Positions 4,879-12,450 of a stretch of DNA of 20,826 bases are shown here, piece by piece. This DNA comes from an uncultured archaeon. Its GTDB lineage: Archaea; Asgardarchaeota; Thorarchaeia; Thorarchaeales; Thorarchaeaceae. The notes under the pieces are model-generated. The model was not told the origin of the DNA. It did not search any database and saw only the letters and a list, made by a program, of their open reading frames with translations. Location of the stretch: assembly GCA_964631415.1 (NCBI GenBank), contig CAZVZC010000037.1:1-20826 (forward strand), written 5' to 3'. Made by a program: the position numbers and the translations under genes. Every line of letters starts with the position of its first letter. Position 1 is the first letter of the stretch.

Positions 4879-5790
4879 TCATTTGTTGTCACGAAGGGTT
4901 GTAACTACTGCTCCGTCCTCGGTCACGAACAGACTGTGTTCAGATTGAGCAACCATACCACCCTTGCCCTCAATGAGTACTGGGTATCCTCTGATAGCAC
5001 CTGTCCGGACAAGCGTCGGAATGGCGAGTACAGGGTCAATTCCGTCTTCGTAAAGCCATCTGGAGGCCCATGGCAGTGTACCGAACCTCCTTCGTGCGAT
5101 GTCACGAACACCGCCAATGAATGGGTCGAGAGTCTGTTTGCCAGACATCACGTTCGCGTAAATGAAGGCCTTGTCGCTGTTTCTCACGGTGCCATTGCCA
5201 TCTGTTGAAAAGGGCTCGACAGCGTAGGTCTCTCCTGACTTCATCACCTCGCTTCCTCTGACGCCGACATTAGGCACATTCTTGCCTGCATGGAGTGTCC
5301 AAGGTGCAAGTTGATGACCTGACAACTGATGCACGGGAATGAGCCCTTCTCGTCTAATTGCCCGTTCTATCACCCTGCCAACCTCGCCCAGTCTGACACC
5401 GGCACGAATTACGTCGATGGCCGCTTCTAACGCTGTTTCAGCGGCACCAACGTACCTCTCAAAGGAGCCATCGAGATCCACAGTCACAGCTGTGTCAGAG
5501 ATGTGGCCATTCACATGGGCTCCAAGATCGACCTTGACCAAGCCTCTATCTGGCAACACTCTGGTGTCAGCATGTGGGCTAGTGTAGTGCGCAGCCTCCT
5601 CATTCACAGAAACGTTACAAGGAAATGCAATGCCTGCTCGACCACCACCGTACTCTAGGATCCTCTTCTCTGCAAGAGTGCATATTGTCAGAACCTTTGC
5701 TCCAGGCTTGACCTCCTTTGTGACTTCAGACAATACGCGTGCTGCAATACGTCCAGCCTCCACGAAGTCGGGATGTGGTCGAATGCTCAT
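4879..5790 (-). CDS. map: Methionine aminopeptidase type II (copy 2)
   Basis: AFPCN...AAHYT, KVDLG..NGHISDTA, GHQL, LHAG, AVEPF, AQSEHS. Start set at ATG 5790 (MSIRPHP) by similarity to copy 1 (MGVSPHP). Confidence 0.93.
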   Translation of the reverse strand: MSIRPHPDFVEAGRIAARVLSEVTKEVKPGAKVLTICTLAEKRILEYGGGRAGIAFPCNVSVNEEAAHYTSPHADTRVLPDRGLVKVDLGAHVNGHISDTAVTVDLDGSFERYVGAAETALEAAIDVIRAGVRLGEVGRVIERAIRREGLIPVHQLSGHQLAPWTLHAGKNVPNVGVRGSEVMKSGETYAVEPFSTDGNGTVRNSDKAFIYANVMSGKQTLDPFIGGVRDIARRRFGTLPWASRWLYEDGIDPVLAIPTLVRTGAIRGYPVLIEGKGGMVAQSEHSLFVTEDGAVVTTLRDNK

Positions 5791-5798
5791 TTCGTGAA

Positions 5799-5820
5799 CT
5801 CCAAGAGTGCTCCAAGAGTG
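5799..5820. repeat. Perfect 11-bp tandem duplication
   Basis: CTCCAAGAGTG at 5799-5809 and 5810-5820. Confidence 0.9.
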
Positions 5821-5825
5821 TGGTG

Positions 5826-5839
5826 TCTTAAAGCGTTCG
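5826..5839 (-). promoter_or_regulatory. Putative BRE/TATA promoter of map copy 2
   Basis: Minus strand reads CGAACGC-TTTAAG about 38 nt upstream of ATG 5790. Confidence 0.5.
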
Positions 5840-6597
5840 TGTTGAGAAGCCGTGAAAGCGAACAAGCGAATCCGGTACCACCTTGAGATCGCAGCACAAT
5901 TCAACAAGAAGCAGGAGTGGCCGATGCCTGTGCCCCAGACACAAACCCCCAGAATCATGGCATCAGACATCATGTCTGGCTCAGCTGAGCTGCCTCGTGC
6001 CGGGTTCCTTTGGCATCGACCGACCTGCCAATGTACGAAACCGGGGTGACCCGAACTCATCTTGGGATATACATCCACGTCATCCGGGTCCGTTGTGGCT
6101 CGTCCAAACGGTGCTTGGCAGGTCAATGTTCAGACAGTGATTTGACCACTGAGGGCAGAATGACCTGTCCGGCCACAATGTCTTCAGTGATCAAGAACTC
6201 TGCTGAACAGGACAACATTGCCCAAGTATGCTATTAGGCTTGTCGACTGGTGGAACTGGGACGATGCGGAGGCTATGCATTAACGACACGTTCAAATACA
6301 ACGTTCCCAAGATGCTCCTACAGTGCTGAGTAATTCTCAGCCCAAGATTGCATATCATAAGATAATCACATCACATGCGCCTCAGGCCCCTCAGTACTGA
6401 AATGAGCCCAGGCTGGTGATAGAACACCACACTGGTCACAGGACCATTATCAATCACAGAATCATCATCCATTCACATCAAACTCACAGGATAATTGGCA
6501 GGACTCGGAGTCAAAGGCAAAGAAAGTCACACGTCCTAGAACGTGGAAGACGTCTAACCCAGATGAGAGTAGTCAATGGAGCGCTGGACTCGGCGGG

Positions 6598-7950
6598 ATG
6601 AGGGGACTAGGCAGTAGGTTACAGGAGAAGTGCATTTGTATAGGGACTGATTTTGATCAGAGCAGCGCCAAGTACGTGATCAGGGCAAAGATTGAGATTG
6701 ACGGAGTCGTTGACAAGCCAGACGTTGTAGGGGCCATATTTGGGCAGACAGAGGGACTCTTGGGAGAGGAATTGGACCTTCGTGAGCTTCAGCGCACGGG
6801 ACGTATAGGAAGGATTCAGATAGCAGTCAAGTCTGAGGCAGGAAGTAGCAAGGGAGAGATAGTGATCCCTGTTTCTCTCAACAAGACTGCCACAGCAATA
6901 CTAGCCGCCGCGCTTGAAACCGTGGACAGAGTGGGGCCGTGTACAGCAAAGGTCACACTCGAGAAGCTGGAAGACATACGTGGCGCAAAGCGTCGCAGAG
7001 TCGTCAGCAGGGCCATAAGTATCCTGAAGGGCTGGGAGGAGGAGATTGCTCCAGGTTCAGAGGAAATCACTGGTGAAGTCACAAGGGCCAAGAAGAAGGC
7101 TGTTGAGAAGTTTGGCCCGGACAATCTTCCCGCAGGTCCTGAGCTGGAGAACAGCGATGAGATAATCATTGTCGAAGGACGAGCTGATGTCATCAACCTC
7201 ATGAAGAGTGGCATTGAGAACACTGTTGCTGTAGAGGGCACGCATGTCCCGAAGTCGGTAGCGGAACTCACGAGGCGGAAAGGGAAGACTATCGTGGCCT
7301 TCCTTGACGGAGACCGTGGTGGTGACCTTATCCTGAGAGAACTGATGCAGGTGGCCAAGATAGACTATATCGCACGTGCACCAGAAGGAAAGGAAGTAGA
7401 GAACCTAGCACGTCCGGAGATTGTGAAGGCTCTTCAGACTAGGATACCTGCAGAGAAAGCGCTCGCGCTCGTGACCGAGGGAAAATCCGCTCAGGCCCCT
7501 AGACGGGGACCACCGCGGAGAATCACCCGACCAAGCAGAGAGGAAATGCCGAGAACTGGCGAAGACCGTCATGTGGAAGCGGGAGTCGGAGTGCCACTCA
7601 CAAGCTCAGTGAGAGCACCAGCTAGGCCTGTTAGGACCATCCATAAGACAGTACCTCAGGTCGATGAAACATACCTGGCAAAGATACCCGAGATCAGGGA
7701 GTCCTTCAAAGCTGTGCTCTTTGGCAAGGACAAGCAGGTCCTAGTGGAGTGCGGCGTTGCAGAGCTTGCAAAGACTCTTGAAACTCAGCAGACCGTTGAC
7801 ACGATAGTCTTTGATGGGGTCATCACTCAGCGCCTTGTCGACATGGCCGCTACGAAGCAGACCCGGCTCATAGTCGGAGCTGCTGTTGCAGACATCGAGA
7901 CCAAGCCAGCAAGCCTGCAGATTGTCACGTTTGATGATCTTGGACGCTGA
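6598..7950 (+). CDS. dnaG: Archaeal DnaG (TOPRIM protein, exosome-associated)
   Basis: GVVDKPDVVGAIFGQTEGLLG, LRELQRTGRIGRI, TOPRIM IVEGRADV and FLDGDRGG, C-terminal FDGVITQRLVD. Start codon uncertain. Confidence 0.95.
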   Translation: MRGLGSRLQEKCICIGTDFDQSSAKYVIRAKIEIDGVVDKPDVVGAIFGQTEGLLGEELDLRELQRTGRIGRIQIAVKSEAGSSKGEIVIPVSLNKTATAILAAALETVDRVGPCTAKVTLEKLEDIRGAKRRRVVSRAISILKGWEEEIAPGSEEITGEVTRAKKKAVEKFGPDNLPAGPELENSDEIIIVEGRADVINLMKSGIENTVAVEGTHVPKSVAELTRRKGKTIVAFLDGDRGGDLILRELMQVAKIDYIARAPEGKEVENLARPEIVKALQTRIPAEKALALVTEGKSAQAPRRGPPRRITRPSREEMPRTGEDRHVEAGVGVPLTSSVRAPARPVRTIHKTVPQVDETYLAKIPEIRESFKAVLFGKDKQVLVECGVAELAKTLETQQTVDTIVFDGVITQRLVDMAATKQTRLIVGAAVADIETKPASLQIVTFDDLGR

Positions 7951-7970: not shown

Positions 7971-9509
7971 ATGGCCAAACAACAAGGAAACCGGAAGCCG
8001 TCAGTATTACACGGTGTTATCTCGTTCGAGCAGGAAGGCACCACAGCGAGAGGTGCGAGGCCGTCTGGCGTGACTTCTGTCTTAGACTCCATCGAAACGA
8101 CAGCGGAGATACCCATCCCCAGAGATCCATTTGAACGCATAATCGGCCAAGAACATGCTGTTTCCCTCATTCGTTCCGCTGTCACTCAGAGGAGACACAT
8201 TCTCCTGTGTGGAGTGCCAGGCGTGGGAAAGTCAATGCTTGCACAGGCAGCCTACACGCTTCTCTCAGCTCCCAGAGAGGAGATACGGCTCAGGCCCAAT
8301 CCCCTGCAGCCTGACAGACCATGTGTCGTCGTAATCAAGGCTGACTGTGCCAGTATGGGTTCTGCAGAGCCAAGCCAGTCTGCCGACACCCGGTACGTTC
8401 GCCCGGAGGAGATGCCCTTTGAAACTGCAGTGAAGATGGGATACAGATGCCCAAGATGTGGGAGCTTCTCGACACCAAGCCAAAGTGTGTGTATGGACTG
8501 TGGTAGCCCCAAACGATGCGAGTGGCCGGCCGAGAACTCGTATCATGGGCTGTTTCGGATTCTGGATGTCGTGGGTGAACGCGCTCTCACGTCCGTGAAG
8601 TGCAGTGAAAACATTGGTGACACCGTATGCCAAGTAGAATACCGAAGAACCAACAGGGACTCTATAATGGTTCTCAGGGAGAGAGATGGGGGCAATCCAT
8701 CAGTAGTGGCAACTGATGACAAGAGAGACTACGTCCTAGTCGGACGAAACTCATCTCGCTTTGTCAGAGCGAGCGGGACAAGTCCGGTGGAACTGTTGGG
8801 GGATGTCAAGCATGACCCTTACGGTAGCGCAGAGTCTTTGGGTGTGCCTGCACATATGAGAGTTGTACCTGGAGCCATTCATGAAGCGCATGAGGGTATC
8901 CTCTACCTTGACGAGATTGCGTCTCTTGGACCATATCAGAAGCACCTACTCACGGCCATGCAGGAGAAGAAGTACTCCATATCAGGACATAACCCACAGA
9001 GCTCCGGTGCGGCAGTGCGAGTTGACGATGTGCCCTGTGACTTCCTCCTCTTTGCCTCATGCAACCCGGAGGACCTCCCTCAGATCCTCCCAGCGCTTCG
9101 TTCACGGATTAGGGGCTATGGTTACGAAGTGATGCTCTCCTCATGTACCCCCAAGACCGCAGAAAACGTCGACAGGATGGTTCGCTTCATTGCGCAGACT
9201 GTACAGGAAGACGGTCGGATACCGCACCTGACCACCGAGTCAGTACAATCGGTCCTGAAGGTCTCTGAAGACATGGCCTACAGACTAGACGGGCAGAAGG
9301 AGGCCCTGACACTGAGGCTGCGAGAACTGGGAGGACTGGTAAGGGTGGCCGGAGACCTTGCAGTCCGGGACAGAGCCGAACTCATCATGCCTGCGCACGT
9401 TCATGAGGCAGAAGGCCTGCTTGCAGGGGTCGACACCAGCGGTACAGGGACCACTAGGCCGGGGAGCCCCACAATGCCCACCAGTGAATACACAAGCTAT
9501 TTCTTCTGA
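7971..9509 (+). CDS. LonB-type AAA+ ATPase (COG1067-like) lacking the protease domain, with a Cys4 insertion
   Basis: IIGQEHA, Walker A GVPGVGKS, LLGDVKHDPY, PGAIHEAHEG, Walker B LYLDE, ALRSRIRGYG, LRLRELGGLVR. ORF ends shortly afterwards with no Ser-Lys peptidase domain. Alternative start GTG 8070. Confidence 0.88.
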   Translation: MAKQQGNRKPSVLHGVISFEQEGTTARGARPSGVTSVLDSIETTAEIPIPRDPFERIIGQEHAVSLIRSAVTQRRHILLCGVPGVGKSMLAQAAYTLLSAPREEIRLRPNPLQPDRPCVVVIKADCASMGSAEPSQSADTRYVRPEEMPFETAVKMGYRCPRCGSFSTPSQSVCMDCGSPKRCEWPAENSYHGLFRILDVVGERALTSVKCSENIGDTVCQVEYRRTNRDSIMVLRERDGGNPSVVATDDKRDYVLVGRNSSRFVRASGTSPVELLGDVKHDPYGSAESLGVPAHMRVVPGAIHEAHEGILYLDEIASLGPYQKHLLTAMQEKKYSISGHNPQSSGAAVRVDDVPCDFLLFASCNPEDLPQILPALRSRIRGYGYEVMLSSCTPKTAENVDRMVRFIAQTVQEDGRIPHLTTESVQSVLKVSEDMAYRLDGQKEALTLRLRELGGLVRVAGDLAVRDRAELIMPAHVHEAEGLLAGVDTSGTGTTRPGSPTMPTSEYTSYFF

Positions 9510-9524
9510 AACAAGACCCTGACG

Positions 9525-10628
9525 TTGGATGCCAAGTTGAAGGTACTGAAGAGGATCTTGAAGGAGGGCAAGATCGAGTTAAAGGTCGAGTCACTGGATG
9601 ACCTCTGGCATCTCTACAACATAGTAGGTCCAAACGATGTCATCATCTCGCGGACTATCAGACGCGTGAAAGTCGGCGATGAAGACGACAGGAAGCAGGA
9701 GAGCATCCGGAAACCCATGACGCTGGTCCTAAGGGTGGAGGACGCTGCATTTCACACTTTTACGAACAGGGTCAGAATAAAGGGGACAATCCTTGATGGC
9801 CCCGGTGATCTTGTGAGCATAGGTTCGCATCACACGTTCAACATCGAGATGGGTGACACTCTGACCATCATAAAGGAGCATTGGCCCGACTATCTACTGA
9901 AACGAATTGATGAGGCAGAGAAGAAACAGGCCAATCCGGTCTGCCTTATCGTGAGCATCGAGGACGGTGCAGCCGACCTCATACTCGTTGCAGACTATGG
10001 GATCCGAGAAGCGGTGAGTGTCCATACCAGCATATCACGCAAACGCGGCGACCAGAAGTCCTATGATGCTACCATGAAAGAATTCTTCTCCGAGGTTGCC
10101 ACTGCTCTTCAGTCCCAACTTGAACAGAACCAAATTGGTCTTGTGATTGTTGCAGGCCCAGGGTTTGTCAAGGACCATTTCAAGGAGCACATCTCCACAG
10201 TCCGTATGAAGGACCTTCCACCATTAGTGTTGGAGGCTACGAACTCGATTGGTATACCAGCGGCAAAGGAGATCCTGTACAAGGGAGTCATCTCCACGGT
10301 GATGGCAGAGCTGAAGATTGAAACCGAAACAAGGCTGGTTGAGGACTTGATTGCCCACTTGGCAAAGGGTGATGGGCTAGCAGCCTATGGCGAAGCAGAA
10401 GTTGCACGAGCAGCACAGTATGGTGCCATTGAGAGTCTTCTCATAACCGACAAGAGACTAAGAGAGGGAACGGAACAGCAGCGTCGCTGGACAGACGATC
10501 TAATACATGACTCCGAGAAGACTCGTGCAGTATTCCACATTGTTTCGACAGATCACCCGGCTGGTGACCAGCTGCAGCACCTAGGAGGAATAGCGGCGAT
10601 TCTGCGATTCGCGATTGAGCGGTCATAG
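9525..10628 (+). CDS. pelA: Pelota/Dom34 ribosome rescue and mRNA surveillance factor
   Basis: ESLDDLWHLYNIV, GSHHTFNI, AGPGF, AAYGEAEV, GDQLQHLGGIAAILRF. Start TTG 9525 or 9537. Confidence 0.95.
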   Translation: MDAKLKVLKRILKEGKIELKVESLDDLWHLYNIVGPNDVIISRTIRRVKVGDEDDRKQESIRKPMTLVLRVEDAAFHTFTNRVRIKGTILDGPGDLVSIGSHHTFNIEMGDTLTIIKEHWPDYLLKRIDEAEKKQANPVCLIVSIEDGAADLILVADYGIREAVSVHTSISRKRGDQKSYDATMKEFFSEVATALQSQLEQNQIGLVIVAGPGFVKDHFKEHISTVRMKDLPPLVLEATNSIGIPAAKEILYKGVISTVMAELKIETETRLVEDLIAHLAKGDGLAAYGEAEVARAAQYGAIESLLITDKRLREGTEQQRRWTDDLIHDSEKTRAVFHIVSTDHPAGDQLQHLGGIAAILRFAIERS

Positions 10629-11738
10629 TGGTTCGAAGAGTGTCTGCAGTCTGTCCCATGATGGGTACTCGGAGGCAATTCCCATCTCGACCTTGTAGAT
10701 GCCCCTGAGCTTCCGACCGAGGCTGTGCGCAATCTCCTGTAGAATCCACGGAGCAAGCTCAATCCGCATCCTAGACTTGTCTATGTTCATCAGCCTCGGT
10801 GGCACATCGAACTCTGATCTCAGAGTCTGTCCGATGGACTCAAGCGCAGGGACGTCTAAGCGATGGCCGTGGGGCCCTCTTATGATACCCAAGATAAGCA
10901 GGGGGTCTGTATCATCTTCCTCCTCGAAGGGGCGTCGGGTGCGCTTCAACCTTCTGTGAAGACGATTGCGTAACTGCACTCCGTCCTTGAAACTTGCAGT
11001 GCAGTAGTGGACTGATAGATGGTCTAGATTCTTTGTAGCCCACACCATCACTTCCCGTGCTGTGTCTTCGCTGCCCATGACACTCGATCCAGCCATGTTT
11101 GTCAGTCGCATGCCCAGAGCCACCAACCGCTGGAAGTTGGTTTCACTGGCCTCCAGCTCATTGAGATTGAGAAAACGCACACCAGCATGTTCGGCACGTT
11201 CTGCCAACGCCTTCAGCTGCTCTGAGGAGCCTGGAATGACAGGGACCTCTATGCCCACATGTATCTCGCTCCGTACCGCCCGCTCAATACCCGTCCAGTC
11301 CTGTGTCTGAGGATGAAACCTGATCTCATCCAAGCCGGCCTCTTTCAGCCGCCGCAAGACTCTGGCGCTCAGATCTGTCCTGCTCGTGTACAGATGGATG
11401 TGGAAGTCGTTTCCACGTGCAGACTTGAGTAGCGAGATGTAGTGGAGTGTTCGCTCAAGCTGACAGAGCGGGTCGCCCCCGCTGAAACCAGACCCTTCTG
11501 CACGAATGGCTTCGACTTCACGGAGGACATCCTCATCACTGGTCACAGGCACCTCGTCAGCGAATGTCACGTCCTTACCCGTCTTCTCCTGAGATATTGG
11601 ACAGTAGTAACATGAGCTGTCGCACAGGCCAGTGACGAAGAGAACCATCTTCGAACCTCTTCCGCACAACCTGCACCCCAGAGGCAGTTCTCCTATGCAA
11701 GAGGATCCTGCTTGACCCTCCCTTATCTGTCGGACCAT
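10623..11738 (-). CDS. Radical SAM protein (COG2108-like, uncharacterised archaeal family)
   Basis: GCRLC..GSKMVLFVTGLCDSSCYYCP (CX3CX2C), SGGDP, FHIHLYT, LDEIRFHP, NLNELE. Start ATG 11738 or GTG 11759. Confidence 0.88.
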   Translation of the reverse strand: MVRQIREGQAGSSCIGELPLGCRLCGRGSKMVLFVTGLCDSSCYYCPISQEKTGKDVTFADEVPVTSDEDVLREVEAIRAEGSGFSGGDPLCQLERTLHYISLLKSARGNDFHIHLYTSRTDLSARVLRRLKEAGLDEIRFHPQTQDWTGIERAVRSEIHVGIEVPVIPGSSEQLKALAERAEHAGVRFLNLNELEASETNFQRLVALGMRLTNMAGSSVMGSEDTAREVMVWATKNLDHLSVHYCTASFKDGVQLRNRLHRRLKRTRRPFEEEDDTDPLLILGIIRGPHGHRLDVPALESIGQTLRSEFDVPPRLMNIDKSRMRIELAPWILQEIAHSLGRKLRGIYKVEMGIASEYPSWDRLQTLFEPL

Positions 11739-11748
11739 GGCCAGTCCC

Positions 11749-12450
11749 CTATTTCTCACGCCTTAGGACGGTCCTGCGAAGGGCCGGGTCCGTGTCACGT
11801 AGCGTTTTTGCCACCTCTTCGAAGCTCTCTGTCTGGCTGAGGACATGTGTCCGATATATGCCAGTGCGTCCAATGCTGTCCCTCCTCATCAAGACACGGA
11901 CACGTTCTTGGGCAATGCCGATGCCCACTCCGAGTCTCTTGGCCACCTCGCTCTCATGACCGACCACACCGCTCTCGATGTGACCAGCGGCAGTTGGCTC
12001 AATCAGGAGGAGCCGCTTGTCGACGCCGTGGACTCTCACGCCATTCTGAATCTCCTCAACGCCGACCTGACCGCCCCACTTGTAGAACTCGAGTTCTCGT
12101 GGTCTCATCTTGAAGAGGGGGAAGCTGACGCAGGTGTCGTTCTCAAGGTAGATGTGAGCCTTTAGTACCATCGATGGTGTGGCTTGAGCGAGTTCCCTTC
12201 TAACCACTCCCGTCAAGGCCACTTCGACCTTGTAGCTTGATATTGTGTATGGCACAACTATGTCCACGTCTGAGTTTCTGGTCACATCGCCACGAGCCAC
12301 AGATCCATATACAAACGACCGCACTCCCGCAGACTCCAGCGCTTCCATTATCAGTAGTGCTCGTGACCTAAGCCCTTCAAGCAGAGTCCAATGGTCTTTG
12401 TCATACTCTACAGACCTCTGTTCGTGAAGAATCTCGGGCTTCTTGGCCAC
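11749..12450 (-). CDS. Pol-beta superfamily nucleotidyltransferase (COG2413-like)
   Basis: YGSVARGDV..SDVDI catalytic motif, ELEFYKWGG, GVDKRLLLIEPT, GRTGIY. Confidence 0.85.
   Translation of the reverse strand: MAKKPEILHEQRSVEYDKDHWTLLEGLRSRALLIMEALESAGVRSFVYGSVARGDVTRNSDVDIVVPYTISSYKVEVALTGVVRRELAQATPSMVLKAHIYLENDTCVSFPLFKMRPRELEFYKWGGQVGVEEIQNGVRVHGVDKRLLLIEPTAAGHIESGVVGHESEVAKRLGVGIGIAQERVRVLMRRDSIGRTGIYRTHVLSQTESFEEVAKTLRDTDPALRRTVLRREK

Follow-up and report, generated by a model that had tools for sequence, protein, structure and literature searches.

In HslU-HslV, and in Mpa/ARC with the bacterial 20S proteasome (GQYL tail), a separate AAA+ unfoldase inserts its C-terminal tails between the subunits of a proteasome-type peptidase. 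The archaeal 20S proteasome is, to our knowledge, served only by the classical AAA ATPases PAN, Cdc48 and AMA, and Thermoplasma acidophilum is the organism of most proteasome study. Archaeal LonB carries an S16 peptidase of its own and a transmembrane (TM) anchor. Here we describe a gene for a LonB-type AAA+ ATPase that has neither and that ends in a tail resembling those of PAN and Cdc48. The gene lies in a 20,826-nt stretch of DNA (the window) from contig CAZVZC010000037.1 of an uncultured archaeon of the Thorarchaeaceae (Asgardarchaeota; assembly GCA_964631415.1). From its sequence, we consider the protein (the ATPase, below) a candidate partner of the 20S proteasome; tails of the hydrophobic-tyrosine-X (HbYX) type are known, and a Lon scaffold for them would be new.

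The ATPase shares with archaeal LonB (Thermococcus onnurineus, PDB 3k1j/4zpx; T. acidophilum Ta1081) the AAA+ module with its pore-loop, Arg-finger and lid motifs. However, it lacks the peptidase and the anchor, has a zinc (Zn)-ribbon insert and an HbYX-like tail, and belongs to a separate clade. With PAN/Rpt, Cdc48 (VAT) and AMA (PMC3493965) it shares a flexible C-terminal tail of the form [small/hydrophobic]-[Y/F]-x that is conserved across orthologues (M-F-x, G-Y-x, L-Y-x), but its motor is of the Lon type (HCLR), it has no coiled-coil/OB or double-psi-barrel N-domain, its Zn-ribbon insert is internal, and it is known from sequence. In Thorarchaeota the tip of the tail, S/D-Y-F/Y-x, also has the required third-last Tyr of the Y-Phi activators Rpt5 and PA200/Blm10 (PMC8907193). 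The Y-Phi motif was defined by peptides on the human 20S and prefers Thr as the last residue, compared with F/L here, and applying it to an Asgard 20S is an extrapolation. HslU and Mpa/ARC belong to other AAA+ families with other tail motifs, and their homology to the ATPase is limited to the AAA+ fold. A member of the same family as the ATPase is already in Swiss-Prot: Ta0098 of T. acidophilum (Q9HLX6, 'Putative lon protease homolog'; the T. volcanium entry is P58275) has the Zn ribbon, no peptidase domain, dnaG upstream and a Tyr-containing tail that ends S-Y-E. It is ~43% identical to the ATPase, but its Tyr is penultimate, where that of Thorarchaeota is third-last, and it has no pelota neighbor.

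A LonB-type motor without a peptidase or an anchor

The first-pass annotation of this DNA had read the gene as a complete LonB AAA+ module with no Ser-Lys peptidase domain, and both parts of that reading hold. The closest solved relatives of the ATPase are the T. onnurineus LonB structures 4zpx/3k1j (E 6e-82), with which residues 41-124 and 257-478 align, that is, the AAA+ module flanking the insert. The AAA core is ~48% identical to proteolytic LonB. Walker A/B, the pore loop, the Arg finger and sensor-2 (the conserved region LRLRELGG) are invariant or nearly so in both close and distant relatives, and by this conservation the motor is intact. In the pore-loop motif HDPY, the H, D and P columns are invariant and the Y column nearly so.

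The NCBIfam LonB profile (TIGR00764) gives 336.6 bits, under its cut-off of 516.6, and is matched only to ~388 of 608. Pfam reports split AAA+ matches (Mg_chelatase, Sigma54_activat, AAA_5), a weak Zn_ribbon_3 and no match to Lon_C in the protein; PF00004 matches over the 26-residue Walker A stretch only (22.7 bits). Judged by these profiles, the module is a Lon, Mg-chelatase-like AAA+ and not a classical AAA domain. The AlphaFold2 (AF2) model of the ATPase (pLDDT 78) has the LonB fold, with 3k1j/4zpx as the top Foldseek matches (E 1e-30) and LonC next.

The place of the LonB anchor is taken by a 132-aa insert with a Zn ribbon, which the first-pass annotation had overlooked. We found no TM segment in the ATPase, as the maximum 19-residue hydropathy (KD19) is 1.15 overall and 0.71 within the insert; three Asgard LonB proteins reach 2.5-2.7, a clear TM helix, at the equivalent place. 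Modelled alone, the insert has a pLDDT of 73, and a comparison with 48,161 PDB representatives gave no outstanding structural match, the best Z being 4.2 with weak PAS-like rows. The CxxC-x10-CxxC ribbon is present in 77 of the 78 complete family members that we took from species genomes, and the family as a whole is ~470-520 aa long.

The tail departs from the AAA lid exactly at the site where LonB attaches its peptidase, and the open reading frame (ORF) ends 26 disordered residues past the lid. These last 26 residues have a pLDDT below 50, and the C-terminus reads ...EYTSYFF, followed by a TGA stop. A flexible tail at 9427-9509 had been described before; its disorder stands, but the 27 residues that were quoted begin at 9426, not 9427.

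The N-terminus needs a comment. Starting from the ATG at 7971 the protein has 512 aa, while the gene callers start at the GTG at 8070, for 479 aa (P0002), and the N-termini of homologues (MTSxLDxIETT...) agree with them. The first 33 residues of the longer version are therefore doubtful, and the conserved protein probably starts at the GTG.

A conserved aromatic tip on a variable linker

We examined the tail in three sets of proteins. In 119 close homologues (at least 55% identity), the third-last residue is Tyr without exception, the penultimate is F in 110 and Y in 9, the last is F in 110 and L in 9, and the fourth-last is D in 103, S in 15 and N in 1. The linker before the tip is variable, with an entropy of 2.6-3.7 bits at positions -7 to -22. 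In a Thermoplasmata subclade of 121 proteins, the penultimate residue is Tyr in 104 and the third-last is Gly in 101, and the last one is free (2.4 bits). The third set is the 78 complete proteins from species genomes, which cover at least five phyla. Here the penultimate residue is Tyr or Phe in 74, and 73 fit [small/hydrophobic]-[Y/F]-x; the tail types include G-Y-x, S-Y-x, M-Y-Q, M-F-x, L-Y-G and Y-F-F, among others. Asgard families beyond Thorarchaeota end L-Y-G or R-Y-G, and the L-Y-G of one of them (family f18) is a canonical HbYX. Across the family the linker varies in both length and sequence. A conserved aromatic tip on a variable linker was what the first-pass annotation had expected among homologues, and all three sets bear this out.

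Such tips are not common by chance. Among the ORFs of at least 200 aa in the genome that the window comes from (85% complete; the source genome), the broad pattern is matched by 2.8% and Y-[FY]-x by 0.25%, and the ATPase is the only one ending [DSN]Y[FY][FL]. The operational HbYX pattern, [LVIMGAPFYW][FY]x, has a background of ~4% in two archaeal proteomes, and a natural penultimate Phe works in Methanosarcina mazei PAN-A (Forouzan et al., PMC3493965). The Y-F-F tip fits that pattern. For the Y-Phi motif of the human 20S, Tyr is indispensable as the third-last residue, Phe equals or surpasses Tyr in the penultimate place, and Ser is best at the fourth-last position (PMC8907193). The tip of the ATPase, S-Y-F-F, has the third-last Tyr, the penultimate Phe, a free carboxylate and the favored Ser. 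The earlier proposal that Y-F-F is an HbYX variant is in line with both of these published motifs.

The tip has also to be considered as something other than a docking element for a peptidase. The ATPase could be a stand-alone soluble unfoldase or chaperone, with the tip acting in cis (as an autoinhibitory plug, a subunit contact or a degron) or bound by a domain that recognizes C-terminal peptides, for example PDZ. PDZ domains classically bind hydrophobic or aromatic C-termini, Y-x-F among them. The restriction of the last residue to F/L in Thorarchaeota would suit the recognition of a hydrophobic C-terminus, and a PDZ-bearing M50 site-2 protease is encoded four genes downstream of the ATPase in Thorarchaeota loci. 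However, that neighbor is kept only within Thorarchaeota synteny, and in the other lineages the last residue is unconstrained (Q, G, R, E, H, M, N, S), as in HbYX and not as in PDZ ligands. Trans-acting docking tails are also built in this way, with a conserved free tip on a long, variable, disordered linker. We consider the stand-alone explanation improbable.

An old family and its relation to canonical LonB

Word-indexed searches return thousands of ATPase homologues of equal length. An exhaustive search of 50%-identity representatives splits them into two groups: one aligns with the ATPase from end to end, insert included, and the other is canonical LonB (600-700 aa), which aligns over the AAA core only. 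In a FastTree phylogeny from 306 AAA-core columns, all 21 of the sampled protease-less sequences with a Zn ribbon form one clade (support 0.88) with no LonB inside.

For the distribution across archaea we scanned one genome per species. Among Asgard archaea, the family was found in Thorarchaeota, Jordarchaeum and Heimdallarchaeota, and outside them in Thermoplasma and other Thermoplasmata, Methanomassiliicoccales, Methanomethylophilaceae, Methanobacteriaceae including Methanothermobacter, Altiarchaeota and Micrarchaeota. Further searches added Aciduliprofundum boonei, Korarchaeota, Diapherotrites and Anstonellales. One more homologue appeared under a bacterial label: contig CAVGRR010000025.1, from a gut metagenome-assembled genome called 'Eggerthellaceae bacterium', has an archaeal dnaG and a protease-less Lon ATPase ending MYQ, with a tail identical to that on a 'methanogenic archaeon' contig. 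This is probably a mis-binned Methanomethylophilaceae-like contig.

With this distribution we can deal with the idea that the gene is a decaying LonB remnant, truncated or pseudogenised and functionless. Two of the three LonB modules are missing and the NCBIfam score is under the LonB cut-off, as a remnant would have it. But the thousands of homologues are of equal length with all catalytic motifs conserved, they form a single clade over several phyla with four invariant Cys and a conserved tip, and the gene is present in 32 of 32 genomes of the Thorarchaeota family to which the source genome belongs (the own family, below). This conservation already contradicts the remnant idea, and we find it hardly credible.

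We then scored the protease-less form against canonical LonB in 151 Asgard genomes, and the two are almost complementary. In the own family, canonical LonB was found in 0 of the 32 genomes, including genomes that are 98-99% complete. The protease-less form is also present in 6 of 6 genomes of family f18 and 3 of 4 of family f7, with canonical LonB not found in either. In families f5, f14, f16, f21 and others the situation is reversed, with canonical LonB of ~650 aa present and the protease-less form not found. One genome (G107, family f25) has both. In Thorarchaeota, the protease-less ATPase is the sole Lon-type motor.

Outside the Asgard archaea the two forms coexist in all five genomes that we looked at (Thermoplasma, Methanothermobacter, Methanomassiliicoccales, Altiarchaeales and Methanobacteriaceae), which makes the protease-less ATPase an ancient paralogue that has a role of its own. 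The first-pass annotation had suggested that this Lon motor may have exchanged its own peptidase for the proteasome. As a recent event in this lineage, the exchange does not stand: we reject a recent in-situ loss of the protease in Thorarchaeota because the sequences form one old clade and coexist with LonB elsewhere.

A peptidase encoded by a separate gene would be another way for the motor to work. No Lon_C domain was found anywhere in the source genome, at its 85% completeness, and the search for a separate full-length Lon or peptidase domain that had been called for earlier came out negative there and, for canonical LonB, across the own family. Six of the 32 own-family genomes have weak, partial Lon_C matches in ORFs of ~800 aa (E ~1e-9 to 1e-10, mostly profile positions 108-200; for example, G114:C16:29726-30295), and these may be BrxL-like or other Lon-domain proteins. 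We rejected a separately encoded Lon peptidase or ClpP as a general partner, since none was found in the source genome and six weak matches in 32 genomes are too rare.

Our literature searches turned up no functional work on the protease-less Lon ATPase family, in agreement with the earlier statement that it is functionally uncharacterised. On a Methanomassiliicoccales chromosome we also observed an open frame of 1385 aa with two AAA domains, ~2.7 kb upstream of the protease-less ATPase (G158:C1:3151462-3152694, +).

The 20S proteasome as a candidate partner

The source genome encodes one alpha and two beta subunits of the 20S. No ClpP was found in it, and the 20S is the only chambered peptidase found. 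In its alpha subunit the pocket residues are intact, with the equivalents of Pro17, Gly19, Glu25, Tyr26 and Lys66 all present. One segment differs between lineages: Thorarchaeota alpha subunits have an invariant F-A-A-E-Y-A, while T. acidophilum and the other Asgard families have F-Q-V-E-Y-A. Val24 of the alpha subunit lines the hydrophobic pocket for HbYX (PMC12352868). A smaller alpha residue in the one lineage that has a bulky Tyr at the Hb position of the tail is a suggestive hint, at the level of sequence, that the two may have co-adapted.

The other proteasomal ATPases of the same cell have tails of their own. PAN (G000:C5:24175-25374, +) ends E-I-Y-C, a canonical HbYX, and Cdc48 (G000:C1:136441-138633, -) ends P-G-Y-I, with Gly at the Hb position. 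With the Lon-type ATPase counted, the cell would have three ATPases bearing activator-type tails. Elsewhere, PAN tails end V-M-F-A or Y-M-F-G in Methanomassiliicoccales, and the endings M-F-G and M-F-A occur in PAN and AMA of Methanobacteriaceae; the protease-less family members of Methanomassiliicoccales end M-F-H, M-F-N or M-F-S and those of Methanobacteriaceae S-Y-M. We considered whether family tails co-vary strictly by lineage with PAN tails, as both are M-F-x in 3 of 5 Methanomassiliicoccales genomes. We rejected this because M-F-x is a general PAN/AMA tail of methanogens and the Methanobacteriaceae family members end S-Y-M. What the comparison of these tail sequences shows is a vocabulary shared with PAN, AMA and Cdc48, not strict co-evolution.

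A complex prediction with three alpha copies and the last 45 residues of the ATPase, both given as alignments, scored 0.00 and counts neither way. In one Asgard genome of family f7 (which includes Jordarchaeum), the best alpha-subunit match has one in-frame TAG (G006:C1:986742-987467, -), which could stem from an error in sequencing, mark a pseudogene or be recoded.

We favor docking to the 20S because the 20S is the only chambered peptidase found and the tip belongs to the class by which PAN, AMA and Cdc48 dock. The best single explanation that we can offer from the sequences is that the ATPase belongs to a Lon-derived new class of proteasomal unfoldase that is linked to DnaG and is a candidate for docking on the 20S, and we judge the case for and against it to be about evenly balanced. 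The anatomy is that of a detachable unfoldase: a Lon motor, a receptor-like Zn-ribbon domain and a flexible tail with an aromatic tip. The motor, derived from that of LonB, would form a soluble ring and translocate protein. By analogy with the position of the LonB anchor, the Zn-ribbon insert would sit on the face where substrate enters and may serve as a receptor for substrate or adaptor. In place of the Lon peptidase domain stands the ~26-residue tail, with an activator-type tip (HbYX, Y-Phi variant) of the form [D/S]-Y-[F/Y]-[F/L]-COOH. The tails would enter the pockets between 20S alpha subunits, where the carboxylate would meet the Lys66 equivalent and the aromatics would occupy the hydrophobic pocket, and the gate would presumably open. 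The 20S, and not a built-in peptidase, would then degrade what the Lon-type motor unfolds. The ATPase would share a transcript with dnaG, joined in Thorarchaeota by pelota, and from this gene order its clients are probably tied to DnaG/exosome or stalled-ribosome surveillance.

Several points weigh against docking on the 20S. We know of no Lon-clade (HCLR) motor on a 20S; all of the archaeal 20S-docking ATPases known to us are classical AAA. No paper in the literature that we searched ties the protease-less Lon family to the proteasome, DnaG or Pelota, and the strongest genomic association of the family is with dnaG (see the next section), not with proteasome genes. Of the 78 species-genome proteins, the four without the tail motif (three from Micrarchaeota and one from Heimdall) come from genomes that still encode the 20S; archaea generally encode it, so its presence or absence cannot discriminate. 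The alpha-pocket difference is a single lineage event and therefore has little statistical weight. The tail itself is not uniform in register, as the conserved Tyr is third-last in Thorarchaeota and penultimate elsewhere, and the restriction of the last residue to F/L in Thorarchaeota is not a requirement of plain HbYX. In most lineages the third-last residue is Gly or Ser, which is small and not hydrophobic. Occupancy of the Hb pocket opens the archaeal 20S gate (PMC12352868). Because of the Gly/Ser, many family members might bind without gating, or bind another partner.

With these points included, we consider the observation on the ATPase confirmed and the docking interpretation partly supported, with all of its predictions that can be computed from sequence coming out in its favor. 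If a Lon-clade motor does dock on the 20S, evolution arrived at the same docking solution on an unrelated AAA+ scaffold, and the regulator network as now known is incomplete. A widespread family of 'putative Lon protease homologs', which includes Ta0098 and genes in cultivable methanogens, would also gain a function.

Gene neighborhood and the dnaG association

The near-universal dnaG upstream of the family had, like the insert, been overlooked by the first-pass annotation. In the window, dnaG is followed by the ATPase after a gap of 21 nt (from the ATG) or 120 nt (from the GTG); the coordinates of these features are collected in Table 1. Of the 71 family loci that are informative in having enough upstream sequence, 66 carry a co-oriented dnaG immediately before the ATPase; they come from Asgard archaea, Thermoplasmata, Methanobacteriaceae, Altiarchaeota and DPANN. 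Overlap between the pair is frequent: 4 nt in A. boonei, 19 nt in T. acidophilum (Ta0097/Ta0098), and also in Diapherotrites. Ta0097 is named dnaG in PMC7325993. We found no dnaG neighbor at the ten canonical Asgard LonB loci that we checked, and where members from Micrarchaeota and Anstonellales lack the tail motif, a dnaG neighbor is missing as well.

Downstream, pelota is adjacent and co-oriented in all of the Thorarchaeota loci examined and in no other lineage. A scan for promoters and terminators, which performed at the level of shuffled sequence and was not tuned for archaea, gave no terminator-like site on the + strand between dnaG, the ATPase and pelota. The pairing of dnaG with the ATPase is described nowhere in the literature that we searched, including an analysis of archaeal DnaG context (PMC2643942) and a survey of release-factor/Pelota neighborhoods (PMC6514570). 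An operon so widely conserved and yet unreported makes the family more interesting and also more open to other readings, and it is a new handle on the poorly understood archaeal DnaG.

Table 1. Coordinates in the window of the ATPase gene, its sequence features and its flanking genes.
Feature	Position	Strand	Remarks
dnaG (archaeal Toprim DnaG)	6598..7950	+	Pfam Toprim_4/Toprim/Toprim_2; directly upstream of the ATPase
Protease-less soluble LonB-type AAA+ ATPase	7971..9509	+	Swiss-Prot 'Putative lon protease homolog' family ('ZL' family)
Walker A GVPGVGKS	8211..8234	+	G-P-G-G-K-S columns invariant in close and distant family alignments
132-aa insert between Walker A and Walker B	8343..8738	+	stands where LonB has its TM anchor
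Zn ribbon CPRC-x10-CMDC within the insert	8448-8501	+	four Cys invariant in close and distant members
Pore-loop motif HDPY	8811..8822	+	counterpart of T. onnurineus LonB HDPF (alignment to 4zpx)
Walker B ILYLDE	8898..8915	+	D and E invariant in the close alignment, at least 90% conserved in the distant one
RSR, Arg-finger region (ALRSRIRGYGYE)	9099..9107	+	R, S and R invariant or nearly so; aligns with the same LonB motif
Disordered C-terminal tail, 26 aa	9429..9506	+	AF2 pLDDT <50
Conserved tail tip S-Y-F-F	9495-9506	+	stop TGA 9507-9509
pelota (Dom34 homologue)	9525..10628	+	Pfam eRF1_1/2/3; starts 15 nt past the ATPase stop codon

A neighbor this constant makes DnaG a possible rival partner. 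The motor could serve DnaG and not the proteasome, with its tip docking on DnaG or on the exosome cap that contains DnaG. The ring would then remodel or unfold proteins bound to DnaG or the exosome, or thread nucleic acid for the Toprim protein in the manner of a primase-helicase or exosome-helicase pair. The upstream dnaG across archaeal phyla, the frequent gene overlap, the lack of the neighbor at the canonical Asgard LonB loci and the joint absence of tail motif and dnaG neighbor in Micrarchaeota/Anstonellales members all fit this. So does the Zn ribbon, as a common module for binding nucleic acid or protein, and so do other Lon-like AAA+ proteins that bind DNA, of which BrxL is an example (PMC10164562). 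But the HDPY pore loop and the AAA+ core stay very near those of proteolytic LonB, which argues for a polypeptide substrate, and docking on DnaG leaves unexplained why the tail types are those common to PAN, AMA and Cdc48 of the same organisms. Adjacency points to a shared pathway and says nothing of the surface that the tail binds. We therefore see service to DnaG in place of the proteasome, the main rival, as unlikely, though it deserves to be taken seriously; it is also compatible with docking on the 20S, and both could hold.

Docking on the 20S and the Thorarchaeota gene order can be combined into a more ambitious reading, in which the dnaG-ATPase-pelota operon corresponds, in archaea, to the ribosome-associated quality control of eukaryotes. 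Stalled ribosomes would be split by Pelota and the faulty RNA cleared by the DnaG-capped exosome; the Lon-derived unfoldase would pull out the nascent or stalled protein and pass it to the 20S through its eukaryote-like Y-Phi tail. That all of these steps hold together is a long shot. If they do, the ATPase would represent a fourth class of proteasomal ATPase that arose independently of the others and occurs in the archaea most closely related to eukaryotes. The pelota link and the Y-Phi tail of Thorarchaeota bear on the question of how surveillance of RNA, ribosomes and proteins was coupled before eukaryotes arose.

Other genes surround this cluster. A radical-SAM gene (10623-11759, -) is convergent to pelota. 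In 4 of 10 Asgard genomes canonical LonB has a homologue of this gene within 2-5 kb, a hint that the protease-less gene and LonB occupy related chromosomal neighborhoods in Asgard archaea. On the other side, a methionine-aminopeptidase-like (M24) ORF (4879-6126, -) is divergent from dnaG; the cluster has M24 genes beside it at further Thorarchaeota loci, too, and at one from Anstonellales.

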